From a virus (Duplodnaviria > Heunggongvirae > Uroviricota > Caudoviricetes), in IMG/VR virus record IMGVR_UViG_2874945390_000006, positions 1-26,196 of that record: a stretch of DNA of 26,196 nt. The stretch is one strand, 5' to 3'. Below the pieces are notes generated by a model, which saw nothing but the letters and a program-made list of their open reading frames with translations, was not told the origin of the DNA and searched no databases. The position numbers and the translations under genes are program-made. Positions 1 through 26,196 of this stretch are shown here, piece by piece (the stretch's first letter is position 1; the number at the start of each line of letters is the position of its first letter).

Positions 1-847
1 CTACGATAACCGCGCATTCAACATGGCTATCTGTTCGTCGTTCATGTCATCAATCCACATACCGTAAATTTCATACACCATTTGCGCAGTTTCATGCCCC
101 ATCTGGCTGGCTATAAATGCCGGGTTCGCTCCTGCCGTCAACAGCCAGCAGGCAAAAGTATGTCGCGTATGGTACGGATTACGGCGGCGAATACCAGCAC
201 GTTTTACTGCTGCATTCCATCTTGCACCCAAACTGCTTACCGAGTAATAAGGTTTCTGTTTTTCGTTACACACCCTGGGCATGAAAACAAAATGCAGTTT
301 TTGCTTTTCAGTTCTGCCGTACTCCCGATGATAAAAAGTGATTTCGCTTTTGCGATGATGCCCGGTCAGTTTGTATTGCACCTTCAGTGCTTCAAGAGCC
401 GGCTGCAGTAATGTTACCGTCCGGATCCCGGCATTTGTTTTTGGGGGACCGAACATATCAAGTATCGTCAGGTTTCTTCTGACATTCACAATTCCCTTCT
501 CGAAATCCACATCCTCCCACGCCAGAGCTGCCAGTTCCCCGTGACGAAGCCCGGAGTAAACGGCAAATTTCCACAAGTTTTGGCTCTGTCCTTTTTCACT
601 TTCCATTAATGCATTGAATTCTGTTTTAGATAACGGGTCAGGCTTTATTCTGTTTCGCTGTAATTTTTTTACTCCTTCAAATGGTTTGGTTGATATAAAT
701 CCCGACTGATACGCAAAACGTAACAACGAACAGAGCAGGGCGATATAGTTATCAACTGTGCGCACGGTTCTTCCTTTTTTGTTGGATCTTGGATTATCTA
801 GGTAAAGCGTTTCTCCATGCAGCAGTTCATTCCGGTAGTTTAAGATA
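1..847 (-). pseudogene. Phage tyrosine integrase (site-specific recombinase), C-terminal catalytic part present, 5' end cut by the IS911 left end
   Basis: Minus-strand ORF ending at stop codon 1-3; contains box I Arg (VYSGLRHGELAALAWEDVDF) and C-terminal HTRHTFACWLL...Y motifs of tyrosine recombinases. Reading frame runs into the IS911 inverted repeat at 848; the track's start at 873 is a GTG inside the IS. Only about 100 residues precede box I, so the N-terminal arm-binding region looks absent. Confidence 0.7.
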
Positions 848-919
848 TGAAGTGGCACACTGAATTTGGCCACCTGAACAGAGGTGATATGCTCACCTCA
901 GAACAACACAGGTGCTCCA

Positions 920-2088
<1,169 letters not shown>

Positions 2089-2103
2089 CCACTTCAATCT
2101 GAC

Positions 2104-2181
2104 AACTGCCGAATCGTGACCCGACCGTCCTGATGCACGAGTTCCACAATTCGCGTCTTCAGTTCTTCCCGCTGTTCGGGA
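2104..2181 (-). pseudogene. 5' fragment (26 codons) of an unidentified phage gene downstream of the dnaC-like gene, cut by the IS911 right end
   Basis: Reverse complement reads GGAGGA-N5-ATG GCG AAA CCT TTT ACT CCC GAA CAG CGG GAA GAA CTG AAG... (MAKPFTPEQREELKTRIVELVHQDGRVTIRQLSD) and then runs straight into IS911 at 2103. Confidence 0.35.
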
Positions 2182-2212
2182 GTAAAAGGTTTCGCCATAA
2201 ATCCTCCTGAAA

Positions 2213-2959
2213 CTACTTAACAACCCTCGAATGGCTAACATTCGGACGCCAGCTCTCCCAGTTAAAATTCACCCAGCGCCCGCCGTTCATGACCATGCGA
2301 TCCATCACCCGCTCGCCGAGAAGTGTATTCATCGCTGCATGGTTAATATTTGTCAGCATCCCCACACCGCGTAACGATGCCGTCCGGCGATCAACAATCT
2401 GGTTCAGTACCACCTGCTCGTTTTTCGTATCCCGCTGCATGCCAATTTCATCCAGGACCAGCAGGTCAACACCACAAAGCTCCTGTAAAAATTTTTCACC
2501 GGATTTGCCGTTGTCGTAGCTCTCATGCAACACGCTCATGACATCGGACACGGTGACGATAATCACGCTACGCCCCTTCGCCATCAGCCGGTTGCCAATC
2601 GCGGCTGCAAGATGATTTTTTCCGGTGCCGGGCTTACCGCTGAACACAAAATTCGTACAGCCTGTCATCAGTTCGTCAGCTATGGATTTCGCCTGACTCA
2701 GTGCATGTCGCTGACCGTCGTTCTGCGCCCGGTAATTCGCAAACGAACACTTCCGGTGCAACGGCTGGATGCCGGAGCGGTTCAGGATTTTTTCCACCCG
2801 CAACTGACGATTCAGGCGGTTGATCTCCTCGCAACGTTTCTGGCCTTCAGCAAGTTGCCACTCGCGCCACTCCGCAACCGTTCTGAATGGGGCGGTTACA
2901 TGTGGTGGGGTCAGTCTGCGGATACGCTCCAGAACGCCTCCTGTCGCAATATTTTTCAT
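2213..2959 (-). CDS. DnaC-like replicative helicase loader (phage replication protein, AAA+ ATPase)
   Basis: 248 aa with Walker A FSGKPGTGKNHLAAAIG, Walker B DLLVLDEIG and the DnaC-like tail LGERVMDRM...FNWESWR; start overlaps the stop of the upstream initiator gene. Confidence 0.85.
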   Translation of the reverse strand: MKNIATGGVLERIRRLTPPHVTAPFRTVAEWREWQLAEGQKRCEEINRLNRQLRVEKILNRSGIQPLHRKCSFANYRAQNDGQRHALSQAKSIADELMTGCTNFVFSGKPGTGKNHLAAAIGNRLMAKGRSVIIVTVSDVMSVLHESYDNGKSGEKFLQELCGVDLLVLDEIGMQRDTKNEQVVLNQIVDRRTASLRGVGMLTNINHAAMNTLLGERVMDRMVMNGGRWVNFNWESWRPNVSHSRVVK

Positions 2960-2965
2960 GGTCTG

Positions 2966-4165
2966 TTACCCCCTGAAGCCTGGCGGGATCGCACTGTCCG
3001 GCAACGAGACGGTGTTAACCTGTCGGAGCAACGTCTCAGGCCGAACACCTTTCGGCGCGAACAGACCCTGGTATTCATTGGCGATGCTGTGTCGAATCAC
3101 CTGCTCAGGTGTAAAACCCTGCTGACGGAATTTTTCCAGTTCCCGTATCGCCCCGTTAGCGCCCTGCTCCGTTCGAATTGGTTTTCGCAATGCCTGCCTG
3201 AACTGGACCCACTCATGCCAGAGTGTTTCTGGCAACCAGTCGGGCAGATCAACTGACAACGGGTCAAATTTTTTCTGGCGAACAGCCCCACCGATAACCA
3301 GAATTCCCTGCTCGGTGTGCCTTGCGATATCACTGCGCCGCAAGACACATATCCCGGTTTCAACAGCACCGATTTTGAGCAGTGATTTCTGTCGCGGAGA
3401 ATTTCGGTCAAGCTCGATCCCACACCGGACACCGTTCCTGTCAGTCACGACGATATCAATCCGCCCTCCGCAACCGTCACCACGCTCTGGCACCGGATAC
3501 TCACGACAGACATCCAGGCCAGCAGCCTGCAACGCAACCACCGCAGAATTACAAAATTCCGCTGCAGTACCGCCAGATAATCTCCCCTCAAGCACTCCAG
3601 CCACAAAATCCCGAAACTCCCTTCCGGAAGGGAAGGGTTTGGGATGGGTTAGATCTGTTTTTAGAGCTTTATCTGTATCTTTATTAGTTGCCTTTGTGTT
3701 GGCATCATGTTCGAACACCACTCCAACATCTGTTTGAACACCTGTTAAATTTCTCTCTTGTTTTGTTTGAACATCTGCTTCCTTTCTGCTTCTTCTGGCC
3801 TGAACAGATGCTTTTCCTGCGGCTGATTTTTTGGTTAATTTTTCTCTGACAGATGCCAGATCTTCCTCAATCCGAAGATGCATCCATTCGTCGCCGTTAT
3901 CACAAAAAAACTCCCGCAAGGATGGTTCAACATCAACCCATCGCTCGTTAGTCAGACGGGCAATTTTTGCCAACCTGTTTTTGGGTATTGGCTTTCCTGT
4001 TTGCCAGTAATTGAACATCAGCAACAAATACGCGCCGTGCTCCTCTGCTGACAAATGCATGGTGTCAGCCAGGTAATCAGCTATGTACAGTTGCATGTAT
4101 GGTAATGCGGCCATAATTGCCCCGTATGATGCTGCCCGGTTGCTTAGAATAAGCACAAACAGCAT
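2966..4165 (-). CDS. Phage replication initiation protein, YdaU/DUF1376-like N-terminus with additional central and C-terminal domains
   Basis: N-terminal region MAALPYMQLYIADYLADTMHLSAEEHGAYLLLMFNYW resembles DUF1376; sits immediately upstream of and translationally coupled to the DnaC-like gene. True start may be the internal ATG at 4114. Central segment GRIDIVVTDRNGVRCGIELD is of unknown function. Confidence 0.55.
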   Translation of the reverse strand: MLFVLILSNRAASYGAIMAALPYMQLYIADYLADTMHLSAEEHGAYLLLMFNYWQTGKPIPKNRLAKIARLTNERWVDVEPSLREFFCDNGDEWMHLRIEEDLASVREKLTKKSAAGKASVQARRSRKEADVQTKQERNLTGVQTDVGVVFEHDANTKATNKDTDKALKTDLTHPKPFPSGREFRDFVAGVLEGRLSGGTAAEFCNSAVVALQAAGLDVCREYPVPERGDGCGGRIDIVVTDRNGVRCGIELDRNSPRQKSLLKIGAVETGICVLRRSDIARHTEQGILVIGGAVRQKKFDPLSVDLPDWLPETLWHEWVQFRQALRKPIRTEQGANGAIRELEKFRQQGFTPEQVIRHSIANEYQGLFAPKGVRPETLLRQVNTVSLPDSAIPPGFRG

Positions 4166-4273
4166 GGAAACTTTTGCTTAATGAACAATGACAGAATCGT
4201 CGGAAGACCTGAGGTAGCCTGAGTTTAACGGACACTCCTTCCTGAAATAGAATGGCATCAGAAGGAGCTAATA

Positions 4274-4576
4274 ATGAGCAGAAAAACCCAACGTTACTCT
4301 AAAGAGTTCAAAGCCGAAGCTGTCAGAACGGTTCTTGAAAATCAACTTTCGATCAGTGAAGGCGCTTCCCGATTATCCCTTCCTGAAGGCACTTTAGGAC
4401 AATGGGTTACCGCCGCCAGAAAAGGGCTCGGTACTCCTGGTTCCCGCACGGTGGCTGAACTGGAATCTGAAATTCTGCAACTGCGTAAGGCGTTAAATGA
4501 AGCTCGCCTTGAGCGAGATATATTAAAAAAAGCAACAGCGTATTTTGCACAGGAGTCGCTGAAAAATACGCGTTAA
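4274..4576 (+). CDS. IS600 OrfA
   Basis: 100-aa HTH protein; A7 run at 4525-4531 is the likely -1 frameshift site into orfB. Confidence 0.85.
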   Translation: MSRKTQRYSKEFKAEAVRTVLENQLSISEGASRLSLPEGTLGQWVTAARKGLGTPGSRTVAELESEILQLRKALNEARLERDILKKATAYFAQESLKNTR

Positions 4577-4611
4577 TCGAACAATGGCGACAACAATTTC
4601 CCATTGAAGCG

Positions 4612-5430
4612 ATGTGTCAGGTATTTGGTGTATCCAGGAGCGGTTATTACAACTGGGTACAGCATGAACCCTCAGACAGAAAACAAAGTGATGAGCGGCT
4701 AAAACTGGAGATTAAGGTGGCACATATCTGCACTCGCGAAACATATGGAACCCGGCGGCTCCAGACGGAGCTGGCAGAGAATGGCATCATCGTTGGTCGT
4801 GACCGACTGGCACGTCTTCGTAAGGAGCTAAGGCTACGCTGTAAGCAGAAACGCAAGTTCAGAGCGACTACGAACCCGAACCACAATCTGCCAGTTGCGC
4901 CAAATCTGCTGAACCAGACGTTCGCTCCTACAGAACCAAATCAGGTCTGGGTGGCGGACCTGACGTATGTTGCCACACAGGAGGGATGGTTGTACCTCGC
5001 TGGCATCAAAGATGTTTATACGTGCGAAATTGTCGGCTACGCCATGGGAGAGCGCATGACAAAAGAGCTGACAGGTAAAGCCCTGTTTATGGCGCTCAGG
5101 AGCCAGCGCCCACCTGCCGGGCTAATCCACCACTCTGATCGAGGTTCACAGTACTGCGCATACGATTACCGGGTCATACAGGAGCAGTTTGGTCTGAAAA
5201 CATCAATGTCGCGTAAAGGTAACTGTTACGACAACACTCCGATGGAAAGCTTCTGGGGAACGCTGAAAAATGAGAGCCTGAGCCACTATCGTTTTAATAA
5301 CCGGGATGAAGCCATCTCAGTAATACGGGAATACATTGAGATTTTCTACAATCGTCAGCGTCGTCACTCTCGTCTGGGGAATATCTCCCCGGCAGCCTTC
5401 AGGGAAAAATATCATCAGATGGCTGCTTAA
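4612..5430 (+). CDS. IS600 OrfB (DDE transposase catalytic part)
   Basis: 272-aa ORF in the -1 frame; that frame is open back to the A7 run, consistent with an OrfAB fusion. Confidence 0.85.
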   Translation: MCQVFGVSRSGYYNWVQHEPSDRKQSDERLKLEIKVAHICTRETYGTRRLQTELAENGIIVGRDRLARLRKELRLRCKQKRKFRATTNPNHNLPVAPNLLNQTFAPTEPNQVWVADLTYVATQEGWLYLAGIKDVYTCEIVGYAMGERMTKELTGKALFMALRSQRPPAGLIHHSDRGSQYCAYDYRVIQEQFGLKTSMSRKGNCYDNTPMESFWGTLKNESLSHYRFNNRDEAISVIREYIEIFYNRQRRHSRLGNISPAAFREKYHQMAA

Positions 5431-5473
5431 AAAAAGAACAAATGGTAGTGTCCGCTATTGCCAGTACACCTCA

Positions 5474-12246: not shown

Positions 12247-13278
12247 ATGGGTACGGTGACGTTTGACTGTCGGATGTTTGTCAGTCTGTACCCGGAGTTT
12301 TCCACGGTGACACCGGAGCTACTGACGGCGGTGTTTAACCAGGCGACCGCGTTGTACCTGGATAACACGGACGACAGTCCGGTTACCGACCTGAAGGAGC
12401 GGGAACAGCTTCTGTTCCTGCTGGTTGCGCATCTGTGCGCATTGCGGGGGCTGGGAAACGGGAGAGACGGGCAGGCTGGTCTGGTGGGGCGTATCACCAG
12501 TGCGTCGGAAGGTTCTGTATCGGTATCGGTGGATAATAGCGGCAGTAATGATGCGTCGTGGTGGTATCTCCAGACCCCCTGGGGTGCTGACTACTGGCAG
12601 GCGACAGCGCCATACCGCTCAATGCAGTATCATTCCGGGGGGCACCTTCGCGATATCCGGGGCATTATTACCGGGGATACGGGAGGGGCGTCGATGGTAA
12701 ATAAAGTCACAGGTGGCAAACAGTTCCGGCAGACGCTGAAACAGGTTGCCGCGAACCTTTCATTGGGTAAAAAACTCAAAGTGGGTTTTCTTGAGGGAGC
12801 AACTTACCCTGACGGTACGTCAGTGGCTTATATTGCCGCAGTTCAGGAGTTTGGCGGAAGAGCGGTCATACCCGCCCGTGAGCAGACGCTCCACTTTCGC
12901 TATAACGAAAAAACGGGAGAAACCGGGCACCGCTTTGTCAAAGCCGGTAAAGGGAATTTTGTTCAGGATGTGGTTATTCCTGAGCACACGGTCACCATTC
13001 CCCCCCGTCCGTTCTTCCGTAAGATGATCGAACATAAAAGTCCCGAATGGGGCGAAAAAATGGCGACCTTATTACGGGCGAATGATTTTGATACTGCGAC
13101 CGCTCTGGTGTGTATGGGAGAACATATCAAAGGGCAGTTGCAGATGTCTGTTCGCGACTGGGAAAGTCCGCCCAACGCTGCATCCACTGCCCGGCAAAAG
13201 GGTTTTAACAACCCGCTTATTGAAACCGGACATATGATGGACAGCGTTGATTATTCTGTAGACGGGGGCAAAAAATGA
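12247..13278 (+). CDS. Head-tail connector-like protein (DUF4054-like N-terminal region fused to an HK97 gp10-like C-terminal region)
   Basis: 343 aa; N-terminal [38 protein letters not shown]... resembles DUF4054; C-terminal part (...[36 protein letters not shown]...) resembles gp10-family tail-completion proteins; Gly-rich linker between them. Confidence 0.4.
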
Positions 13279-13640: not shown

Positions 13641-14171
13641 CCCTCTCCGTTACGGAAAGCGCTCTTTATCAGGCCCTCGGTGATTATCTCCGGGGGCTTT
13701 TTTTCTGATGCCGGGATTGAACGAACGCAGCAGAACCAGGTCCCGATGCCTCAGGGGAATTTCATCACCATGACGGGCATTGATGTTACCGGATTATCCA
13801 CTGCGGTAGTGGCATATTCTGCGCCAGCGCAGGCTGGTGAGGGCTCTCAGCATATCACCCGTACCACAAAATGGCGTTGCCAGCTTGATTTCTACGGCCC
13901 TCACGCGGCAGATAACGCGCAGGTGCTGGCAACGCTTTTCCGGTCTGAATTTTCCGTACGGCTTTTCCGGCAGGGCGGTGGGCTGATTTCCCCGCTGTAT
14001 TGCTCAGAGCCCTTTAACACCACATTCCCCAACGGTCAGCAACAGTATGAACCGCGCTGGACGCTTGATATTCAGATGCAGATTAACCCTGTGGTCACAA
14101 CTTCCCTGATGTTTTTTGACAACGTGATCACCCGGACAACGGAGGCTGATAATGCCAATTCCACTCAGTAA
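13625..14171 (+). pseudogene. Neck/tail terminator-like structural gene interrupted by a +1 frameshift in a T7 homopolymer (13698-13704)
   Basis: ATG 13625 with RBS GAGGG 8 nt upstream gives [27 protein letters not shown] and stops at 13706-13708; the remainder of the protein (SDAGIERTQQNQVPMPQG..., track ORF 13680-14171) continues in the +1 frame. Removing one T from the run fuses the two. Confidence 0.5.
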
Positions 14172-15636
14172 AGATGTACAGATAAATCCCGGTGTGCTGG
14201 CTGTGGCGGGTAATGCCGTCGATCTTAACGGCCTGCTGTTGACCAGTAATCCGTTACTTCCGGTCGGCACTGTGGTTCCGTTTTCCTCTCCGGATGATGT
14301 GGCCGCGTATTTTGGTGCATTATCCGATGAGTACGCACGCGCTCAGCTTTATTTCCAGGGCTTCAAAAATGCCACCAGGACGCCGGGGCAATTGTTGTTT
14401 TCCCGTTTCAGTCCTGCCCCATCGGCGGCCTGGTTACGTAGCGGTTCGTTTAAGGGCGCGACTGTTGAACAGCTACAAAAACTTTCCGGCACGCTGATGC
14501 TGAGTATTAACGGGAAAAGCGTCAGCATTGAAGTGAATTTTAACGGTGTCGCCAGCTTCGCCGCTGCTGCAACGGCACTACAGACAGCGCTGACCGCAGC
14601 AGTGGCTACAGTGGTATTCGATACCACACAGAATGCTTTTGTCATTACTGTCGCCGGGGCGAAACCCGAGAGTACCACGATAACGTTCGGCAGTGGATCG
14701 GCAGCAGAACTCCTGAAGATGACCAGTAACACCGGTGCGGTGATATCCCGGGGCGCGCCTGTATCTGATGTCCCTGACACAATGGCAGCCATTAAGGCCG
14801 CTTCCCAGCAATGGGCGGGTTTTTCCACGGTATCTGAGGTCACTGACGAGCAACACCTGGCGTTTTCTGCATGGGCAAACGGGCAGGGCAAGCGTTACTT
14901 TTATGTGGCATGGACAACCAGCGGCAACGCCAGAGTAAAAGGCAGTACTGAACACATCGCTTACCAGATAATTGCTGTCAATAACTACAGCTCTGTTGTA
15001 CCTGTTTTCGCGACTGATGGTAACCGGGCTGCAGCGGTACTGGGGTATGCAGCGTGCCTTGATTTTGTCCGACCAGAGGGGCGTGTATCATTCAAGTTCC
15101 GCGAGTATGAGGGGCTGGCCGCTGATGTTACCAGTGGCAGCGATTATGATGCGCTGATCGCCGCAGGTTACAATTTCTACGGAAAATATGCGGAAAACAG
15201 TGTGGTGGAAGATTACTGGGCGGATGGCACTATTACCGGTGATTTTAAATGGCTGGACAGTTTCTGCGGGCAAATCTGGCTGAATGCCAGTTTGCAGGGG
15301 GCGGTGATCGCGTTATTCAAGTCAAACCAGACGATCCCCTACAACAATGAAGGGCGGGCGCTGGTTGCAGCGTCAATGAGTGACGTTATCCAGCAGTACA
15401 AACGCTGGGGAGGGATCCGTGAAGGGGGGACACTGACGGAGGCGCAGAAGAAACAGATTAACAATGTTGTGGGGGCAGATGTTTCTTCAACGTTGTTTGC
15501 CACCGGCTATTACCTGTATATCGGCGATATGCTTCCCTCTTTGCGGGCAACCCGTAGCAGTCCGTCCTGTACGCTCTGGTACTGTGACGGCGGTAGTATC
15601 CAGAAACTTGTTATTGCATCCACGGAGGTCCAGTAA
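14152..15636 (+). CDS. Contractile tail sheath protein (DUF3383-like)
   Basis: 494 aa, RBS GGAGG 8 nt upstream of ATG 14152; size and sequence character of phage sheath proteins; followed directly by a tube-sized gene. Confidence 0.7.
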
Positions 15637-16083
15637 ATGTCGGGTAACAACAACACCATCACTGCGGCGGATGCCATTATCACGCTGACAGTGAATAATC
15701 TGTATCCCTCCGGCGTACGACTTCAGGGATTTGCAACAGATAACGTTTATGGCACCGATCCACTGGTACTGGCGGAAACTGCCCGCGGTATTGACGGTAA
15801 ACTGTCCGCGGGATTTGTGTACAGCAACATTATCCAGACGTTTCATATCATGCCGGATTCCCCCAGCCGGGATATTTTTGATACTTGGTTAACCACATCC
15901 CGGGCCAGTCGGGCTGTATTCCGTTGTAACGCTGTCGTCCTGCTTCCGGCGATTGGCCGTAAATATACCTGCGTGAATGGCGTACTCAAACAATGGAAAG
16001 CGCTGCCTGATGCAGCTCGTACGTTGCAGCCAGGGCAGGCGGTTATTGAGTGGGAAACCATTACTCCGGAGGTTTTTAACTGA
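15637..16083 (+). CDS. Tail tube protein
   Basis: 148 aa, GGAGG RBS, directly downstream of the sheath gene. Confidence 0.6.
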   Translation: MSGNNNTITAADAIITLTVNNLYPSGVRLQGFATDNVYGTDPLVLAETARGIDGKLSAGFVYSNIIQTFHIMPDSPSRDIFDTWLTTSRASRAVFRCNAVVLLPAIGRKYTCVNGVLKQWKALPDAARTLQPGQAVIEWETITPEVFN

Positions 16084-16776: not shown

Positions 16777-16779
16777 CTG
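16777..16779. repeat. 3-bp target-site duplication (CTG), left copy, of IS600 copy 2
   Basis: CTG immediately before the IS end at 16780 matches CTG at 18044-18046. Confidence 0.7.
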
Positions 16780-16822
16780 TGAGGTGTACTGGCAATAGCG
16801 GACACTACCATTTGTTCTTTTT

Positions 16823-17641
16823 TTAAGCAGCCATCTGATGATATTTTTCCCTGAAGGCTGCCGGGGAGATATTCCCCAGACGAGAGTGACGACGCTGACG
16901 ATTGTAGAAAATCTCAATGTATTCCCGTATTACTGAGATGGCTTCATCCCGGTTATTAAAACGATAGTGGCTCAGGCTCTCATTTTTCAGCGTTCCCCAG
17001 AAGCTTTCCATCGGAGCGTTGTCGTAACAGTTACCTTTACGCGACATTGATGTTTTCAGACCAAACTGCTCCTGTATGACCCGGTAATCGTATGCGCAGT
17101 ACTGTGAACCTCGATCAGAGTGGTGGATTAGCCCGGCAGGTGGGCGCTGGCTCCTGAGCGCCATAAACAGGGCTTTACCTGTCAGCTCTTTTGTCATGCG
17201 CTCTCCCATGGCGTAGCCGACAATTTCGCACGTATAAACATCTTTGATGCCAGCGAGGTACAACCATCCCTCCTGTGTGGCAACATACGTCAGGTCCGCC
17301 ACCCAGACCTGATTTGGTGCTGTAGGAGCGAACGTCTGGTTCAGCAGATTTGGCGCAACTGGCAGATTGTGGTTCGGGTTCGTAGTCGCTCTGAACTTGC
17401 GTTTCTGCTTACAGCGTAGCCTTAGCTCCTTACGAAGACGTGCCAGTCGGTCACGACCAACGATGATGCCATTCTCTGCCAGCTCCGTCTGGAGCCGCCG
17501 GGTTCCATATGTTTCGCGAGTGCGGATATGTGCCACCTTAATCTCCAGTTTTAGCCGCTCATCACTTTGTTTTCTGTCTGAGGGTTCATGCTGTACCCAG
17601 TTGTAATAACCGCTCCTGGATACACCAAATACCTGACACAT
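16823..17641 (-). CDS. IS600 OrfB (transposase catalytic part)
   Basis: 272 aa, near-identical to the copy 1 OrfB (I/R, E/A and T/A differences). Confidence 0.85.
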   Translation of the reverse strand: MCQVFGVSRSGYYNWVQHEPSDRKQSDERLKLEIKVAHIRTRETYGTRRLQTELAENGIIVGRDRLARLRKELRLRCKQKRKFRATTNPNHNLPVAPNLLNQTFAPTAPNQVWVADLTYVATQEGWLYLAGIKDVYTCEIVGYAMGERMTKELTGKALFMALRSQRPPAGLIHHSDRGSQYCAYDYRVIQEQFGLKTSMSRKGNCYDNAPMESFWGTLKNESLSHYRFNNRDEAISVIREYIEIFYNRQRRHSRLGNISPAAFREKYHQMAA

Positions 17642-17676
17642 CGCTTCAACAGGGAATTGTTGTCGCCATTGTTCGA

Positions 17677-17979
17677 CTAACGCGTATTTTTCAGCGACTC
17701 CTGTGCAAAATACGCTGTTGCTTTTTTTAATATATCTCGCTCAAGGCGAGCTTCATTTAACGCCTTACGCAGTTGCAGAATTTCAGATTCCAGTTCAGCC
17801 ACCGTGCGGGAACCAGGAGTACCGAGCCCTTTTCTGGCGGCGGTAACCCATTGTCCTAAAGTGCCTTCAGGAAGGGATAATCGGGAAGCGCCTTCACTGA
17901 TCGAAAGTTGATTTTCAAGAACCGTTCTGACAGCTTCGGCTTTGAACTCTTTAGAGTAACGTTGGGTTTTTCTGCTCAT
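17677..17979 (-). CDS. IS600 OrfA
   Basis: 100 aa, identical to the copy 1 OrfA; T7 run 17722-17728 is the reverse complement of the slippery A7. Confidence 0.85.
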   Translation of the reverse strand: MSRKTQRYSKEFKAEAVRTVLENQLSISEGASRLSLPEGTLGQWVTAARKGLGTPGSRTVAELESEILQLRKALNEARLERDILKKATAYFAQESLKNTR

Positions 17980-18043
17980 TATTAGCTCCTTCTGATGCCA
18001 TTCTATTTCAGGAAGGAGTGTCCGTTAAACTCAGGCTACCTCA

Positions 18044-18046
18044 CTG
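18044..18046. repeat. 3-bp target-site duplication (CTG), right copy, of IS600 copy 2
   Basis: See left copy at 16777-16779. Confidence 0.7.
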
Positions 18047-19979
18047 CCCTTAACCGGCTCACGACGGTGATGGAAGGTGTCGCTGACACATTCAGTCAGG
18101 GACAGAAGAAAACCAGTGAATCACTGGAAAAAACCGGAAAAGATGCTGATAAAACGGCCCGTCGAATGGAAGATGCCGGGAAACGGGCGTCCCGTTTTTT
18201 TTCAGGGATCCGTAGCGAGATTCTGGCTCTTGCGGGTGTCAGTCTGACGCTGGGGGGGCTGAAGAACCTGGTAACAGGTTTTGCCCGTGATCTGAACCGT
18301 CTGTCCGTGGAATCTGATGCTTTTGGCATGAAGGCCAGAAATCTGGACGGATGGTTACGGGCTGCGCGGGCAAATAATGTTGATGAAGGGGAAATGTCTG
18401 GGGCATTTTCCCGGCTTGCAAATGCAAAAGCGGCCTTCAGAGCCGGAAGGTCCTTTGATCCTGTGTTACAGGATTTGTTTCAGGTTGCAGCCAGGGCGGG
18501 CATTAGTGTTGATTTAAATACTGACAGCACTGAAGCCATCATGCGCAAGCTGGCGGTTATTTTTCCGCGACTGACAAAGTCCGAACAAACTGCCTACGGC
18601 AACGCGCTGGGCTTCAGTTATGCCGGACAGCAGTTTCTTGGCTCCGGTCATGCGCTGAAAGATGTGGACGAATTTACTTCCCGTTCGCAGGTTACGCCGG
18701 AGCGTATAGCGCTGGCCCGTAAGCTACGAAAAGAGCTTGTTGAGCTCGAACAGACCTGGTCCGGCATCGGGATGACGATTAGCACCGCGTTGATGCCGTA
18801 CGCGCTGAAGCTCAGCCACTGGCTGGAGACACTCGGTGACTGGATGCAGCAACATCCGGAGGAAGTGAACAGGTTTATCACCACATTTCTGAATGACGTT
18901 GAGTCAGTGGCCTCCCTGGCGAATAAGGCTGCCGGAGAACTGGGGGGCTGGCAGAATGTCATTATTACGCTGATCGGGCTGAAAGTGGCGTCATGGGTGC
19001 GGGGGCTGACAAAAGCCCTCAGTGGCCCCGGAGGCCTTCTTTTTGCGATAACGGCGCTTTACCCGGTTGTTGACGGATTACTGACATCCATTGTTGGCAG
19101 GGAAAATAAGGACTGGCTGGATTCACATGGTTTTTTCTGGGCTTCAGACGGGACTTTCTTTTTCAATAAGAAAGAGATGGAGACGTATCAGACAAAACTG
19201 GATGCCGGAGAAAAGCCTGGCAACATCACCCGGGCACAATCACCCACAGTATGGCAGCAGGGCATGCTGGATACTCAGGCTTCTCAGGCAACCGGGAGGG
19301 AAGCAGCCTTCGGTGAATCCTGGCTACAGGGTATGCGTGCGACGCAGGAAAAACTCGGTAATGCCATGCAAAACCGCCAGCGACCGACGAAGACCGGGGA
19401 AGCCCTGTTAGGCTGGCTGCAACCGAAACTGTCTCAACTGGAGGAAAAATATAACCTGCCGCCCGGACTGCTGCGCAGCGTTGCGATCACCGAATCCCGT
19501 GGTAATCAGTTTGCCGTCTCACCTGCTGGTGCGATGGGACTGTTTCAGTTCATGCCGAAGACGGCCAGTGAATTTGGTCTGAGGGGGAACGATGCCTTTG
19601 ATCCCGAAAAAGCCGCTGATGCCGCCGCGAGAAAACTTGGTGGCCTGATACGTTTTTTTCATGGCGATCTGGCTAAGGCTCTGGCGGCATATAACTGGGG
19701 AGAGGGAAATGTTCAGCGTAAGGGACTGGCTGCTGCTCCGGAGGAGACCCGCAACTATATTCCGCGGGTGCTGGCGAACCTGCCTTATCCGGGTGCGGCA
19801 ATGGCCATACGGTCGCGCCATCCTGCGCCTGTATCGCAGTCCACCGTAACGGAAACCACGCATATCGGGACACTGAATGTCACCACAACGTCGGACAATG
19901 TGAAGGGTATTACCGATGACGCACGTCGGCGTATCACGAATTCGGCGCTTGTGTCGGTTTATTCCAGCGGGGTAACAGG

Positions 19980-20430
19980 ATGAGTTTTTCTTTCGATAAT
20001 ATTTCCCTGAATAACTTTTCGCTCAGTGAAAGTAACGTACTGAGTGCAGTTCGTGGCGGCGGTGTCCTGGGACTCATTAACAGTGTACTGGCACCGTCAT
20101 TCGGTATTTATTACGCACGGAATGATCCGGCAGGTGCCCATCAGAAGGGTGGCAAACCTTTCTCCCCGGATTCTTTTGTTGTCGTTGAGGTGGGCGCGGA
20201 GGCTTCTGTTTCCACCGTCCCCGTGGAGCAGGGGGCTTATACCACCTTTAATAAAATCCAGAGATCGCCGGAACTGCATGTGACTTTCACTGTAGAGGGG
20301 TGGACGGCCTTTTCCGGATCCGTCCCGAACCTGACAAATTTTTCCACCACCTCGCGGACGAATGTGCTGGAAACGCTTGAAAGGATGCGTACCACGGCAG
20401 GACTCTACGATATTGAGACGCCGGACAAGA
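19980..20430 (+). pseudogene. Tail-associated protein gene following the tape measure gene, 3' end replaced by the IS66-family element
   Basis: ATG 19980 overlaps the tape measure stop (ATGA); the ORF runs into the IS inverted repeat at 20431 and terminates inside it (track ORF 19980-20459). Confidence 0.45.
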
Positions 20431-20512
20431 GTAAGCGCCCCATCAGCGACGTCTTGTGAAAATTGTCCTGTCTGGCAACAATCGCGCCCATCTATATAGA
20501 TGGACACGAACG

Positions 20513-21187
20513 ATGAATTCCCAGACAAAAAAAGATATTCCCTGCTTCCGTTCTTATTTGCCTGATGCCCTGCGTTTAAGATTTGAAGATAAACTGACCA
20601 TCCGGGCCATCGCTCAGCGTCTGGGTCTCAGTCATTCCACAATACATACGCTTTTTCAGCGATTTCTTGCATCCGGTATCGCATGGCCATTGCCCGATTC
20701 AGTTTCATTCGCTCAACTTGACGCCATCCTTTATGCCAACAGAAAGAAGGAATTAACAGAGCCTCAAATCAGAGAAGGCTCATGGCGAAAAGAACGGCGA
20801 ACCAGCTATAGCCGTGAATTTAAGGTCCGTCTGGCTAAGCAGGCGTTACAGCCTGGGGCTGTTGTTGCCCGGATCGCCAGAGAACACGATATCAATAATA
20901 ACCTGCTGTTTAAATGGAAAAGCCAGTACGAGGACGGCTTACTGAGCGATGATGACATACAGGAATGCATGCCTGTCCCGGTGGCACTGACTGATACGCC
21001 GGAGCCGACCAGACCAGTTACAAATCCCTTCTGGCGTAACAAGCATGATGAGCGCCCTGAGGGGGCTCCCGGAAACGTCCCACGGTGCGAGCTGCATCTT
21101 AAATCAGGTGTGGTAAAACTGTTTGACCCTCTCACTCCGGAACTGTTACGGGCGCTAATCCGCGAAATGAAAGGGGGTATCCGATGA
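20513..21187 (+). CDS. IS66-family TnpA (Orf1, HTH accessory protein)
   Basis: Start at ATG 20513 (MNSQTKK...); contains ...RRTSYSREFKVRLAKQALQPGAVVARIAREHDINNNLLFKWKSQYEDG typical of IS66 Orf1. The track ORF begins at 20456, inside the inverted repeat. Confidence 0.7.
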   Translation: MNSQTKKDIPCFRSYLPDALRLRFEDKLTIRAIAQRLGLSHSTIHTLFQRFLASGIAWPLPDSVSFAQLDAILYANRKKELTEPQIREGSWRKERRTSYSREFKVRLAKQALQPGAVVARIAREHDINNNLLFKWKSQYEDGLLSDDDIQECMPVPVALTDTPEPTRPVTNPFWRNKHDERPEGAPGNVPRCELHLKSGVVKLFDPLTPELLRALIREMKGGIR

Positions 21188-21531
21188 TAACGCTGCCGAC
21201 CGGTACCAAAATCTGGATCATCGCTGGCATCACAGATATGCGTTGTGGCTTCAATGGCCTGGCTTCGAAGGTGCAGAACACGCTGAAAGATGACCCGTTC
21301 TCCGGGCATATCTTCGTCTTCCGGGGCCGCAGTGGCAAAATGGTGAAAATACTGTGGGCCGATCGTGACGGGTTATGCCTGTTCGCCAAACGCCTGGAAC
21401 GGGGCCGCTTCGTCTGGCCGGTGACCCGGGAAGGGAAAGTGCACCTGACGCCAGCTCAGTTATCCATGCTACTGGAGGGGATCGCGTGGCAACATCCCAA
21501 ACGGACAGAACGGCCTGGCATCCGGATATAA
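21184..21531 (+). CDS. IS66-family TnpB (Orf2)
   Basis: 115 aa, MITLPTGTKIWIIAGITDMRCGFNGL...ILWADRDGLCLFAKRLERGRFVWP, the conserved IS66 Orf2 family. Confidence 0.85.
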   Translation: MITLPTGTKIWIIAGITDMRCGFNGLASKVQNTLKDDPFSGHIFVFRGRSGKMVKILWADRDGLCLFAKRLERGRFVWPVTREGKVHLTPAQLSMLLEGIAWQHPKRTERPGIRI

Positions 21532-21592
21532 CCCGTGATAAAACAAGGGAATGAACAATTAACTCCCCGATGATATTGAGCTGCTTAAAGCC

Positions 21593-23157
21593 ATGTTGCG
21601 TAAGCAACAGAGTCGGCTTCGACAGTATGCCTGTCAGGTCGCGGGCTATGAGCAGGAAATTGAACGGCTGAAAGCGCAACTCGACAGGTTGCGTCGTATG
21701 TTGTTCGGCCAGAGTTCAGAGAAAAAGCGTCATAAGCTTGAAAATCAGATCCGACAGGCAGAAAAACGACTGTCGGAACTGGAAAACCGGCTGAACACAG
21801 CCAGAAATCTTCTGGAAGATGCATCGTCAGTCACAGATTCACCTGACACCAGTCCCCCGTCAGAAAACCCGATCGCCAGTAAGCCTGAATCCCCGGGACG
21901 AAAATCTTCACGAAAACCGCTGCCGGCAGAACTTCCCCGGGAGACACATCGCCTTCTGCCTGCTGAAACCAGTTGCCCGGCCTGTGGAGGTGTTCTGAAA
22001 GAAATGGGGGAAACAATCTCAGAGCAACTGGATATCATTAATACCGCCTTTAAAGTTATCGAAACCATACGTCCCAAACTGGCCTGTAGCCGGTGTGATG
22101 TCATCGTTCAGGCACCACTTCCCCCTAAACCGATCGAACGCGGTTATGCCAGTGCAGGGTTACTTGCACGGATCCTGGTCAGCAAATATATGGAACATAT
22201 CCCTTTATATCGCCAGTCAGAAATATACGCGCGACAGGGCGTGGAGCTGAGCCGTAATACCATGGTGCGCTGGGTATCAGAAATGGCAGACAAACTCCGT
22301 CCTCTGTATATAGCGCTGAATGACTATGTTCTTGAGGCAGGAAAGGTGCACGCAGATGGCACTCCGGTGAAAGTACTGGCCCCGGGGAACGGAAAGACGA
22401 AAACGGGTCGTCTGTGGGTATACGTCAGGGATGATCGTAATGCGGGTTCATCCCTGCCGGCAGCCGTCTGGTTCGCGTATTCGGCAGATCGCAAAGGAGA
22501 ACATCCGCAGCTCCACCTGGCAAAGTATCAGGGCGTACTGCACTGCAGGCTGATGCCTATGCAGGTTATAACGTACTGTACGAAACGGGCCGGGTGAAGG
22601 AAGCCGGGTGCCTGGCCCACGCCCGCCGAAAAATCCATGACGAGGATGTGCGCCGTCCGACAGAAATGACTCAGGAAGCGCTCAGACGGATAGCAGAGTT
22701 ATACGACATAGAAGCGGAGATACGTGGCAGTCCGGCAGAGGAACGGCTTGCAGTCAGAAAAGCCAGAAGCGTCCAGTTGATGCAGTCGTTGTACGACTGG
22801 ATACAGTTGCAGAGGAAAACGCTGTCGAAACATGCGGAGATGGCGAAGGCGTTCGACTATATCCTGAATCACTGGAATGCGCTGAACGAGTTCTGTCGTG
22901 ACGGCTGGGTGGAAATAGACAACAACATCGGTGAAAACGCGTTACGATCGGTGGCGGTTGGAAGAAAAAATTATCTCTTTTTCGGCTCAGACAAGGGAGG
23001 AGAAAGTGCGGCGATCATCTACAGTCTGCTGGTCACCTGCAAACAGAACGAAGTGGAGCCGGAGGACTGGTTGCGCGAAGTGATCGAGAAGCTCAATGAC
23101 TGGCCGTCGAACCAAGTGCATGAACTGCTGCCCTGGAACTTCTCGTCTGTAAAATAA
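21593..23157 (+). pseudogene. IS66-family transposase TnpC (Orf3), disrupted by a 5-bp tandem duplication (CTGCA CTGCA at 22538-22547)
   Basis: Track ORFs 21593-22597 and 22594-23157 are two halves of one transposase (…CPACGG…HADGTPV…[12 protein letters not shown]… then …[13 protein letters not shown]…[13 protein letters not shown]…). Deleting 5 nt restores the conserved [32 protein letters not shown] stretch. Confidence 0.8.
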
Positions 23158-23189
23158 TCCTTACGCTACGTACTTCTCGGGGCGCTTAC

Positions 23190-23795
23190 ATTGGTACGAC
23201 GAATGCGTTAGGTGGAAGTTCAATCGTTTTAGGAGATAACGATACCGGGTTTAAACAAAATGGCGATGGTCTGCTTGATGTTTATGCGAATGGACAGCAT
23301 GTATTTCGTTTTCAGAATGGCGTGGCTATTGCTTTTAAGAATATTCAGGCCGGAACTGCCAGAAAATTCACGTTATCCAGCGCCAACAACTCCACGAAAA
23401 ATGCAGCGTTTTGTTTGTGGGGTAATCCATCCAGGCCTGTTGTTGCAGAGCTTGGTGATGATTCAGGCTGGCATTTTTTCAGCCAGAGAAACCCGGATAA
23501 CAGCATAGTGTTCACTGTTAACGGACAGGTAATTCCGTTAAATTACGGAAACTTCGATGCCCGCTATAAATATCGAACAGAGGGGGTACAGGATGTACGG
23601 TATGGCCATGAAATGTATTACAGCCCCGGCAGTAACACCGTTTCGTGGAGATTTTGCGCACCTTCGGGACACGGGCTGTCAGGGATGGCGATATCGGATA
23701 CCGGCCGTAACTCAGCGGATAACGTTGACGGTGTGTATTACCGACCACTGCAAAAACTGATTAATGGCACCTGGTATAACGTAGCGAGTATTTAA
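23190..23795 (+). pseudogene. 3' fragment of a side tail fibre gene (receptor-binding C-terminal region), 5' end lost at the IS66-family right end
   Basis: Frame is open from the IS boundary with no upstream start in phage sequence; ends ...YYRPLQKLINGTWYNVASI, resembling the C-terminus of lambdoid Stf proteins; a tail fibre assembly gene follows 3 bp later. Confidence 0.6.
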
Positions 23796-23797
23796 CA

Positions 23798-24220
23798 ATG
23801 TTGCATTTAAAAAATATTACTGCGGGTAATCCGAAAACAGCAGAACAATATCAGATGACAAAACGATATTCGGTCACCTGGCTTTTTTCAGAAGACGGAA
23901 AAAACTGGTATGAAGAGCTGAAGAATTTCGCCAGCGACACAATAAAAATAGCTTACACCGGAGATGGTCGCGTGGTGTGGGTCGGTAAGGATGTGACAGG
24001 CATCGAGCCACGCAATGCCAGCGTTATCGAAGTTCCGGATATTACCGCTAACCGACGGATTACCGCGCCGGGTTACTGGTTTTACCGCAATGATGAATTT
24101 GTCTTTGACTACAGACTCAAAGCGGAAGATGAGCGTGATGCCCTTCTGGCTCAGGTCAGTGCCCGGACAGGGGAATGGGAAGAAGACCTGCTGCTGGGGT
24201 TAATCAGCGAGAAAAGCTGA
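23798..24220 (+). CDS. Tail fibre assembly protein, Mu U-like N-terminus; C-terminus atypical
   Basis: N-terminus MLHLKNITAGNPKTAEQYQMTKRYSVTWLFSEDGKNWYEE...VIEVPDITANRR matches the Mu U/Tfa family; starts 3 bp after the fibre fragment stop. Confidence 0.65.
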   Translation: MLHLKNITAGNPKTAEQYQMTKRYSVTWLFSEDGKNWYEELKNFASDTIKIAYTGDGRVVWVGKDVTGIEPRNASVIEVPDITANRRITAPGYWFYRNDEFVFDYRLKAEDERDALLAQVSARTGEWEEDLLLGLISEKS

Positions 24221-24356
24221 AAGCCTGTCGTATTTACGCGAAATCACTGCAGGCGATGGATTTCAGCACCATCACTGATAAATCCTCATACAACGCCATT
24301 GAATGGTCCGTCTCTCCGGAAGGTTCTTCCTGATTTAATTTATCGCGAGAAAAACT

Positions 24357-25622
24357 ATGTCTGTAGTGATATCAGGTGCGCTGACTGATGGCGCAGGTAT
24401 CCCCATGTCCGGATACCATATTATTCTGAAATCCCGGGTAAACACCCCGGAAGTGGTGATGCACACTGTTGCTGATGTGATGACAGGAAACGATGGTGAA
24501 TACTGTTTCCATGCGCGGACTGGAAAATATGGTGTGTATCTGAAACAGGACTGGCGCAACGAGTACTGTGTTGGCGACATTGCTGTATACGACGACTCAA
24601 AGCCCGGCACGCTGAATGACTTTCTGATTGCTCCTGATGAGGGCGACCTGAAACCGGATGTCGTCAAACGCTTTGAGGAAATGGTGGCGCAGGCGCAGCA
24701 GAGCGCCGGGGCCGCAGCCGGAAACGCACGGCAGACGGCGCAGGATGTGGCGGCAGCCGCAGGTTATGCCCGCGCAGCAGAACAGGCCAAAAATGACATT
24801 GATGCTGCGCTGACCGGCACTCTGAAAACGGCTAACCATCTGTCTGAAATCGCAGCAGCAGGCGAAAAGGCACAACAGAAGTCCCGGGATAGTCTGGGGC
24901 TGAAAAGTGCAGCCACGATGGAAGCACAGAGCGACATTTACGACCGGACAAAAGGCCGTCTGGCGATACCCGGCGCATTCGGCTTTGGGCGTGCTTTTCT
25001 GTATGAAGATGTTATCCGTTTTGACGCTAAGGATGATTTCCTGGCCTGGGTAAGGAATGCGCTGCCAGGTGAATATTCCGTTGCTGCCCCCTACGACATC
25101 ATCATACCCGACGCACTGTTTGAAGGGGGGCTCAGCATCCGGTGGACTGATGCACGCCCTGAGACAAGGGAACCGCGGCGCAGAGCCAAATCCCTTACTT
25201 TTTACGGCATTAACGGCCCCATTTATCACGCCCGCTACCGGCTCTTATCTGGATTTCTGACTGACTGGGTGAAAATAAATATAACCACAGAAGATATTAT
25301 TTACAGAATCGTGGCGAGCTCTGTCCGCAACAGATGGGGAGACCCTGACATTGGCGGGCTGATTATTGCTGCGTACCAGGGAGAAGCTGACGGTGATAAA
25401 GACATCAGACTTGTCAGGGGGCGGTCATACAGAGGCTCACGACTGGGACCGGTGGGGATTTCAGCGCCCTGTACTCCCACCGGAACGCATATAGTATACC
25501 CACAATATTTCATTACGGGATGTTCAGAGCATTCATTACCGGGGTCATATTGCGCCCTGTCCGGGGTGCCGGATACATATGTCTCTGGCGCAATGCTTGG
25601 GCTTTTTATTCGCACATCGTGA
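24357..25622 (+). CDS. Side tail fibre protein with prophage tail-fibre N-terminal domain
   Basis: 421 aa; N-terminus MSVVISGALTDGAGIPMSGYHIILKSRVNTPEVV...VYDDSKPGTLNDFLIAPDEGDLKPDVV parallels the conserved N-terminal domain of E. coli prophage Stf proteins, followed by an Ala/Gln-rich coiled region and a distinct C-terminal domain. Confidence 0.65.
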   Translation: MSVVISGALTDGAGIPMSGYHIILKSRVNTPEVVMHTVADVMTGNDGEYCFHARTGKYGVYLKQDWRNEYCVGDIAVYDDSKPGTLNDFLIAPDEGDLKPDVVKRFEEMVAQAQQSAGAAAGNARQTAQDVAAAAGYARAAEQAKNDIDAALTGTLKTANHLSEIAAAGEKAQQKSRDSLGLKSAATMEAQSDIYDRTKGRLAIPGAFGFGRAFLYEDVIRFDAKDDFLAWVRNALPGEYSVAAPYDIIIPDALFEGGLSIRWTDARPETREPRRRAKSLTFYGINGPIYHARYRLLSGFLTDWVKINITTEDIIYRIVASSVRNRWGDPDIGGLIIAAYQGEADGDKDIRLVRGRSYRGSRLGPVGISAPCTPTGTHIVYPQYFITGCSEHSLPGSYCALSGVPDTYVSGAMLGLFIRTS

Positions 25623-25632
25623 GGAATGCACC

Positions 25633-26196
25633 GTGGAAATTAAAAAAATCATTAATCCCCGTTATACCGAAAGTGGCGCAGTAGACTGTGACGTTTTTTT
25701 TGACGACAGGGACCAGGCAGTCCCCTACACAGCCACCGCTGATGATGTCGCTTCGACGGGTCAGCAAATCTGGCAGGAACTGCAAAGCGGCAAATGGGGT
25801 GAGATAGCCCCATTCACTGTGACACCAGAAATGCTGGAAGCGGCCAGAGAGGCCAGACGTCAGGGAATTGAAGCATGGCGCACAGAACAGGAGGCGAAGC
25901 CGTTCACGTTTGAATGGAACGGTCGTATCTGGAATGCTGGCCCCAACTCACTGGGCCGCCTTTATCCGGTGGTAATGGCTGCGAAATCCGACATTGTACG
26001 GGACGTGATGACGTGGGGTGATGCCGATAATCAGCAGGTGAAACTGTCGATGCCGGAACTGGAAGAACTGGCGGCAGCAATGGCTCAGGCACAGGTTGAG
26101 CGCAATGACGAGATTTATCGCCGTCAGCGGGAGCTGAAGGAAGAGCTGAATAGTCTGAAGGATTTGAATTCGGTTAGGAATTTTATCGTGGAATAA
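25633..26196 (+). CDS. Putative tail fibre assembly/chaperone protein
   Basis: 188 aa from GTG 25633 (RBS GAGGAA 7 nt upstream); the track ORF starts earlier at 25579 and overlaps the fibre gene. Assigned by position directly downstream of the fibre gene; stop TAA at the last three bases of the window. Confidence 0.4.
   Translation: MEIKKIINPRYTESGAVDCDVFFDDRDQAVPYTATADDVASTGQQIWQELQSGKWGEIAPFTVTPEMLEAAREARRQGIEAWRTEQEAKPFTFEWNGRIWNAGPNSLGRLYPVVMAAKSDIVRDVMTWGDADNQQVKLSMPELEELAAAMAQAQVERNDEIYRRQRELKEELNSLKDLNSVRNFIVE

Follow-up and report, generated by a model that had tools for sequence, protein, structure and literature searches.

An ISSfl3 element on the probable scar of a baseplate deletion in a sitABCD-carrying prophage

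What happened to the baseplate genes of a prophage that still encodes the sheath and tube of a contractile tail? The window, a 26,196-nt stretch of viral DNA (IMG/VR record IMGVR_UViG_2874945390_000006), raises this question where an insertion sequence (IS) stands between two incomplete tail genes. An earlier note, made from the sequence alone, had read this IS as an IS66-family element that marks either a multi-kilobase deletion or a junction between two different prophages. Here, we identify the element, compare its flanks with intact relatives, and weigh the ways in which they could have come together.

The insertion element and its ends

The element at the junction (Table 1) shares 99.3-99.6% nucleotide identity with copies annotated as ISSfl3 in E. 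coli RefSeq genomes, above our threshold of at least 95%, and we use the name ISSfl3 as given in that annotation. It has the three-ORF layout tnpA-tnpB-tnpC typical of the IS66 family, and its tnpC contains the LZ, zf-IS66, DDE_Tnp_IS66 and IS66_C domains (PF13007, PF13005, PF03050 and PF13817). The terminal inverted repeats are 11 bp long, perfect (GTAAGCGCCCC/GGGGCGCTTAC) and begin with GTAAGCG, and sister copies have the same GTAAGCGCCCC ends. Domains, repeats and identity thus all bear out the family assignment made earlier. When aligned to the intact ISSfl3 of contig L012, the window copy shows 14 substitutions and one 5-bp indel. A G>T change at 21560 places a nonsense codon at position 4 of tnpC, and ACTGC at 22537-22541 is a 5-bp tandem duplication that shifts the tnpC frame. 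These two lesions imply that the copy lacks its own transposase and is non-autonomous.

The 8 bp beside the element differ, with GGACAAGA on the left and ATTGGTAC on the right, which agrees with the earlier claim that there is no 8-bp target duplication. The absence is meaningful because a sister copy in contig L021, a simple ISSfl3 insertion with the same element ends, carries the expected 8-bp duplication GGGAAGTC on both sides. The missing duplication is explained by rearrangement after insertion and is no argument against IS66 membership.

Table 1. Tail genes and ISSfl3 features in window coordinates
Feature	Position	Strand	Matches and basis
Sheath gene	14152-15636		
Tube gene	15637-16083		
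Tape-measure or lytic tail protein gene (SLT domain)	18044..19983	+	PF01464 SLT, phrog_2013
Dit-like "phage baseplate protein" gene, 5' 451 of 711 nt	19980..20430	+	phrog_1830 at 2.9e-44
ISSfl3 (IS66 family), 2,759 bp	20431-23189	+	IRL 20431-20441, IRR 23179-23189
tnpA (HTH_Tnp_1, PF01527)	20513-21187	+	
tnpB (TnpB_IS66, PF05717; IS66 Orf2-like)	21184-21531	+	
tnpC (DDE transposase) pseudogene	21551..23157	+	Alignment with intact ISSfl3 of L012; translations; split DDE_Tnp_IS66 matches
Tail-fibre gene, 3' 606 nt (201 codons + stop) of 1,401 nt	23190..23795	+	phrog_454, phrog_6859
Tail-fibre assembly gene, broken	23798..24333	+	PF02413 Caudo_TAP
Second tail-fibre gene (phage_tail_N)	24357-25622	+	
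DUF4376 gene	25579 onward, off window end (24357..26196 block)	+	

Cut flanking genes and their intact relatives

Of the tail genes ahead of the deletion, the tape-measure gene is the last one intact, save that its first 82 nt are missing because an IS600 copy is inserted at 16780-18043. It is 99.7-99.9% identical to L001 14001-16387 and L003 20663-23049, which belong to two of the reference prophages described below. The Dit-like gene that follows is broken, and its ORF reads nine codons into ISSfl3 before a stop at 20459. A full-length homologue of this gene matches PF21821 (Dit_like); in a sequence search of the full-length protein against solved structures, no match was found. On the far side of the element, the first 795 nt are gone from a tail-fibre gene whose upstream part is intact in contigs L018 and L019. 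The earlier description of a truncated tail gene to the left and a fibre gene entered midway to the right therefore holds for both flanks. Its further remark that the flanks share a codon phase holds by window numbering, where 19980 and 23190 are each 0 mod 3, but carries no meaning. We rejected an in-frame fusion across the IS since the left gene amounts to 150 codons plus 1 nt and the IS length is 2 mod 3. The right flank begins on a codon boundary, and the left and right parts would be out of frame if joined.

Downstream of the fibre fragment, a 10-bp deletion after 24209 splits the fibre-assembly gene into fragments of 140 and 52 aa (gene calls in L004), compared with the intact 181-aa gene of L018, while 24357..26196 represents the distal part that the prophage has kept. 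Apart from the truncated Dit-like fragment, the window holds no baseplate gene. The contractile-tail set is thus incomplete: sheath and tube are present, the SLT tape measure is interrupted by IS600, the baseplate is gone except for a 5' fragment, and the fibre is truncated. A contractile tail lacking its baseplate genes is what the earlier note had described.

Comparison with intact relatives, the check that it had proposed, drew on three prophages of enteroinvasive E. coli (EIEC) that are intact across the region: L001 and L014 in CFSAN029787 and L003 in RMDEC465. All three are colinear with the window from the terminase to the DUF4376 gene, and their head and tail genes are 99.5-99.8% identical to those of the window. 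The left flank is 99.7-99.9% identical to these references, and its alignment ends at L001 16387, L003 23049 and L014 3919. The right flank is 91-98.6% identical, and its alignment resumes at L001 21469, L003 28131 and approximately L014 9000. About 5,081 bp lie between the breakpoints in each of the three prophages, as an IS-associated deletion would predict. This segment holds the 3' part of the Dit-like gene, the Pam3_gp18 plug, the E217_GP41 hub, the spike, the sheath initiator, Baseplate_J, the DUF2612 wedge and the 5' part of the fibre gene. The references keep the segment and lack the window's ISSfl3 copy, whereas the window is reversed on both points. Eight genes lie between the tape measure and the fibres in all three references and in Pantoea phage PA-1, and among the relatives compared, we found none with the same gene order that lacks only the IS.

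The lower similarity of the right flank compared with the left could likewise reflect a separate origin of the right arm, although mosaicism is common among tail-fibre modules.

Deletion within one prophage or junction of two

The window is identical over 16,217 nt of overlap to GenBank CP026836.1, a complete 5.1-Mb chromosome that is probably that of Shigella boydii ATCC 49812. The prophage is bordered by intR-ttcA-dbpA-zntB on the left and by sitDCBA-uspF on the right. In L004, sitDCBA lies 200 bp past the DUF4376 gene, just outside the window, and L014 is arranged alike. L014 itself adjoins sitDCBA-uspF-ompN, the same site as that of the window prophage; in E. coli K-12, the Rac prophage occupies this ttcA-uspF integration site. 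Other lesions in the prophage include two IS600 copies, an IS911 copy, a truncated terminase gene and the frameshifted fibre-assembly gene. Between the left arm and intR lie IS911, an inverted ydaV-ydaU segment and an IS600 copy that lacks a target duplication, so the continuity of the left arm with the integration site is not clean.

Taken together, the cut genes, the differing 8-bp flanks and the three intact colinear prophages make it very probable that ISSfl3 occupies the place where a single defective, sitABCD-carrying prophage between ttcA and uspF lost 5,081 bp. Between the two options raised earlier, the multi-kilobase deletion is the one supported; a two-prophage junction is disfavoured because both outer borders match the single locus of intact L014. 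The deletion would begin at nt 452 in the Dit-like gene and end at nt 795 in the tail-fibre gene, and with it would have gone the genes for the plug, hub, spike, sheath initiator, baseplate J and DUF2612 wedge. Loss of these genes implies that the tail module is unable to build a baseplate.

How the deletion arose we infer from its product. In one route, a single ISSfl3 copy would have inserted at one breakpoint and then promoted an adjacent deletion by intramolecular transposition into the second site. In another, two ISSfl3 copies would have inserted about 5 kb from each other, facing the same way, and homologous recombination between them would have followed. Either route would leave one IS copy with flanks from different target sites, hence no 8-bp duplication. 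We give the single-insertion route about an even chance and the two-copy route somewhat less, a slight preference that stems only from the need for one insertion and not two within 5 kb. The tnpC nonsense codon and 5-bp duplication would have come after the deletion, and the copy would now be fixed unless another copy supplies transposase. Intermediates would carry the ISSfl3 right end joined to GGACAAGA and the Dit-like 3' part, or the fibre 5' part joined to ATTGGTAC and the ISSfl3 left end. Neither junction had an exact match in viral, genome and metagenome contigs, which include few Shigella isolates, and the window's own left junction had no match in these same collections.

The alternative that survives best, which we nonetheless consider improbable, is that homologous recombination between ISSfl3 copies in two related prophages of the family brought a left arm from one next to a right arm from the other. 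Several prophages of this kind, bearing ipaH or sit, occur in Shigella and EIEC genomes, and substrates for exchange exist: at least two near-identical family members occupy different sites in CFSAN029787, namely L001 with ipaH and L014 with sit, and VL40 carries a third, more divergent type. The best match to the right flank is also not its positional equivalent, the sit prophage L014 (91% over the first 133 nt, then 97.4%), but the ipaH3 prophage of RMDEC465 (98.6% to L003 28131-28736), and the IS600 copy at 4210-5473, which has no target duplication, shows that the locus was reshaped by other recombination events. However, recombination between distant sites would delete or invert the intervening chromosome, and both borders here belong to one site (ttcA-intR and sit-uspF). 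The arms have the order and orientation expected for one prophage, with the same spacing in every reference, and the left flank is equally close to all reference copies, with no sign of foreign origin. To find a second prophage copy that might carry the missing baseplate genes, we looked for the exact tube protein and found it in one place only of CP026836.1, although copies with a slightly different tube sequence would escape this search.

Far less probable still is that the multi-copy, 2.76-kb IS led the assembly to join two non-adjacent contigs falsely. The IS is a repeat at whose ends all short-read contigs break, and three 1-nt homopolymer indels relative to short-read assemblies of the same lineage suggest uncorrected long-read errors. 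Against such an artefact, the assembly record is a complete chromosome, the flanks have the order, orientation and locus expected of neighbours, and both lie inside one prophage with the correct chromosomal border genes. In short-read assemblies, the Dit-like gene also ends exactly at 20430 against ISSfl3, with its 3' part absent thereafter. The ORF across the left junction recurs exactly in 11 contigs, all but one of them (10/11) from short draft or read-set assemblies, and contig L020 begins 4 nt past the right junction; this makes a single-assembly artefact unlikely for the junctions. The IS is not spanned by any short-read contig, and it is the one complete assembly that connects its flanks physically. 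Lastly, the idea that this tail type naturally has one short gene between tape measure and fibres, with the IS as a simple insertion, found no support and is refuted by the undeleted relatives, the PA-1 gene order, the cuts at nt 451 of 711 and nt 795 of 1,401, and the lack of a target duplication.

Meaning and comparison with known systems

A prophage unable to build its tail would leave its sit cargo locked in the chromosome. The breakpoints are exact and the left junction is common to many assemblies; the assemblies that share these lesions probably represent one lineage. The scar could serve to mark that Shigella lineage. IS-driven prophage decay in Shigella is a known, ordinary process, and the importance of the deletion reaches little beyond annotation. 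The ipaH-carrying L001 and the sit-carrying L014 belong to a temperate phage lineage whose early region is Rac-like and whose tail is contractile. Tentatively, and with the odds against it, some of the undeleted EIEC copies may have kept the capacity for induction and for transfer of ipaH effectors and the sit iron/manganese transporter between E. coli and Shigella. If so, the Shigella copy in the window would be a dead, IS-pinned remnant of such an ipaH/sit vector.

The nearest isolated phage in the collection searched is PA-1, which shares the module order sheath, tube, chaperone, tape measure, Dit-like, plug, hub, spike, wedge, baseplate J, DUF2612 and fibre but whose sheath has only 52% amino-acid identity. 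Other phages with tail proteins that match the E217- and Pam3-named Pfam families have the same module order. At the DNA level, no isolated phage in the collection was close to the tape-measure/baseplate flank, for which only a 49-nt IS600 end was matched, in Stx phages.

The element itself is 99.3-99.6% identical over its full length to ISSfl3 of Shigella flexneri and EIEC and has the same ends and gene order; the window copy differs in that it lacks the 8-bp target duplication and has a dead tnpC. A literature search for ISSfl3 returned resistome surveys only.

With respect to its cargo, the locus resembles PAI sit in that a sitABCD operon is linked to phage-derived genes, with sitDCBA directly behind the tail-fibre and DUF4376 genes at the right end of the prophage. 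A review notes the instability of the sit island, where rearrangements, deletions and IS are numerous (PMC7545054, summarising Fisher et al. 2009), and describes neither the present deletion nor which tail type the carrier prophage has.

Deletions mediated by IS are recognised as a driver of genome decay in Shigella (Hawkey et al. 2020, PMC7373316). The elements at the centre of that study are IS1, IS2, IS4, IS600 and IS911, and a text search of it gave no mention of IS66; the present locus links a less-studied IS, ISSfl3 of the IS66 family, to Shigella gene loss beside the five usually counted. As in those cases, an IS marks where genes were lost, copies of IS600 and IS911 occur in the same locus, and the lesions are common to many assemblies, whereas the genes lost here are those of a prophage and not of core metabolism.

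Gene content around ISSfl3 and in intact relatives

The IS66-family element of the window, a copy of ISSfl3, lies between two gene remnants. On its left, the Dit-like fragment retains the 5'-most 451 nt of a "phage baseplate protein" gene that measures 711 nt and matches Pfam Dit_like in its full-length form; the truncated ORF extends 9 codons into ISSfl3. On its right, a tail-fibre gene of 1,401 nt keeps its final 606 nt, followed after 23795 by genes for fibre assembly, a second fibre (phage_tail_N) and a DUF4376 protein. The short truncated tail gene and the mid-gene fibre start described in an earlier note, made from the sequence alone, were thus both borne out.

Features of the window on either side of ISSfl3
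Feature	Position	Strand	Match or remark
Truncated integrase	~1-765	minus	
IS911	~863-2110		beside truncated integrase
DUF977 fragment, ydaV, ydaU	after IS911, within 1-4209	minus	
IS600, second copy	4210-5473	plus	
Tail sheath	14152-15636		phrog_205, E217_gp31_N
Tube	15637-16083		E217_Gp32
Chaperone, then tape-measure or lytic tail protein	upstream of ISSfl3		SLT domain in the latter
IS600, first copy	16780-18043	minus	1,264 bp
Dit-like gene fragment	19980-20430		phrog_1830
ISSfl3	20431-23189		2,759 bp
Tail-fibre gene, 3' part	23190-23795		phrog_454, phrog_6859

We found the region undisturbed in three prophages: the ipaH and sit prophages of CFSAN029787 (L001 and L014) and the ipaH3 prophage of RMDEC465 (L003). 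The left flank could be aligned at 99.7-99.8% as far as L001 16387, L003 23049 and L014 3919, and the right flank resumed at L001 21469 (94%), L003 28131 (98.6%) and L014 ~9000 (91%, then 97.4%). The DNA between these breakpoints, ~5,081 bp in each prophage, contains the 3' end of the Dit-like gene, a Pam3_gp18-type plug, an E217_GP41-type hub, a spike, a sheath initiator, baseplate J, a DUF2612 wedge and the fibre gene's first 795 nt. The same gene order is found in Pantoea phage PA-1, the closest isolated phage in the collection searched (52% sheath identity). Comparison with related phages, as the note had proposed, therefore confirmed that baseplate genes are missing. No relative differing only by the absence of the IS was present in the data examined; every relative carried an additional 5 kb. 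Most of the left flank is carried by only 9 of 5,426 complete E. coli genomes, and the carriers for which records were read were isolated from humans and also harbor ipaH or sit prophages.

The ISSfl3 copy and its junctions

The element begins with GTAAGCGCCCC and finishes with GGGGCGCTTAC, a perfect 11-bp inverted repeat, and encodes tnpA (HTH_Tnp_1), tnpB (TnpB_IS66) and a split tnpC (LZ, zf-IS66, DDE_Tnp_IS66 and IS66_C domains). Its full-length identity of 99.3-99.6% to RefSeq-annotated ISSfl3 of enteroinvasive E. coli (EIEC) chromosomes and plasmids agrees with the family assignment made earlier. Aligned with an intact comparison copy (L012), it differs by 14 substitutions and a tandem duplication of 5 bp. 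The duplication (ACTGC, 22537-22541) shifts the tnpC frame, and a G>T substitution at 21560 creates a stop at tnpC codon 4. Since these lesions prevent the copy from making its own transposase, it is mobile only if another copy supplies the enzyme.

The 8 bp on the left of the element, GGACAAGA, are unlike those on the right, ATTGGTAC, so the lack of an 8-bp target duplication stated in the note was upheld. At identical element ends, a simple ISSfl3 insertion of E. coli FDAARGOS_943 (L021) shows the expected 8-bp duplication, GGGAAGTC; the lack of one in the window thus genuinely points to rearrangement after insertion. The ISSfl3 of L012, on the FDAARGOS_943 plasmid, also lacks a duplication (L012 293-300 and 3055-3062; GTCGTACC versus CCTGAAGT); mismatched flanks are thus not rare among ISSfl3 copies.

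The exact 159-aa junction ORF, comprising the Dit-like start and IS codons, was found in 11 contigs, 10 of which are 2-2.5 kb long, come from short draft or read-set assemblies and extend from the end of IS600 to that of ISSfl3. Another contig (L020) begins 4 nt past the right junction, and many samples yield the 11.3-kb block that separates the two IS600 copies as one contig. Given this recurrence, the IS positions look real and common to many assemblies, which probably represent one lineage. ISSfl3 is spanned by no short-read contig, so the link from flank to flank rests on the complete assembly.

Origin of the probable deletion

Over 16,217 nt, the window matches the complete chromosome CP026836.1 (assembly GCA_002950135.1) without a difference. 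Leftward, the sequence runs through ydaU, ydaV, IS911 and the truncated integrase to ttcA, dbpA and zntB; rightward, beyond the window, it reaches sitDCBA and then uspF. On the K-12 map, ttcA and uspF flank the site of the Rac prophage, and the intact prophage L014 abuts the same sitDCBA-uspF-ompN border. This implies that both outer borders belong to one locus and, together with arms ordered and oriented as in one prophage, favors the reading that ISSfl3 marks an internal deletion in a single prophage. Several near-identical prophages of the same family coexist in such genomes, and the fibre arm is less similar to the reference prophages than the head and tail arm, as might be expected if two related prophages had fused at ISSfl3; however, such a fusion is not favored by the single-locus borders and the concordant arms. 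Hence, where the note had offered a multi-kb deletion or a two-prophage junction, the deletion (~5,081 bp in relatives) is favored and the junction is unlikely.

An internal deletion could have arisen from one ISSfl3 insertion followed by IS-promoted adjacent deletion, or from two same-orientation copies 5 kb apart joined by homologous recombination; either route would leave one IS copy with unrelated flanks. Intermediates of either were absent from viral, genome and metagenome contig collections, which include few Shigella isolates, and the two routes are therefore indistinguishable in these data. We lean slightly toward the former because only one insertion is needed.

Other lesions and known context

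The first IS600 entered the tape-measure gene 82 nt from its start as a simple insertion and is flanked by a 3-bp duplication of the target, CTG (16777-16779 and 18044-18046); a 662-aa ORF at 17995 begins within the end of this IS600. The second, which differs from the first by 7 mismatches, lacks a target duplication (ACC versus CTC) and truncates the large terminase gene, whose first 333 nt are gone. To the left of 4210, the window lacks the small terminase and lysis genes of relatives and most of their early genes, so this copy marks another deletion or rearrangement. Whereas ydaV-ydaU is co-oriented with the late genes in the Rac-type layout, the segment is inverted in the window. In the fibre-assembly gene, a 10-bp deletion at 24209-24210, a position that no short-read contig covers, causes a frameshift that yields 140-aa and 52-aa pieces (181 aa when intact, in L018). 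Relative to four short draft or read-set assemblies of the 11.3-kb block, three 1-nt indels (8410, 12636-12642 and 13698) all fall in homopolymer runs (C4, G6 and T7). They split the head-morphogenesis gene, shorten the tail-terminator gene and merge the DUF4054 gene with the following one into a 343-aa ORF (12247-13278), and are probably long-read errors in CP026836.1, not real mutations.

In this contractile-tail family, prophages bear their cargo immediately downstream of the DUF4376 gene. L014 and the present prophage have sitDCBA there (16418-19867 of L004, the record used to read past the window's right end, ~200 bp beyond it), and four EIEC prophages located elsewhere on the chromosome (L001, L002, L003 and L013) have an ipaH effector gene. 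Overall, the earlier reading holds, but the event is an ordinary one. Gene loss driven by IS is characteristic of Shigella (PMC7373316), and the sit island has been described as unstable and as showing deletions, rearrangements and IS (PMC7545054); the IS-linked prophage gene loss seen here is already known in kind.
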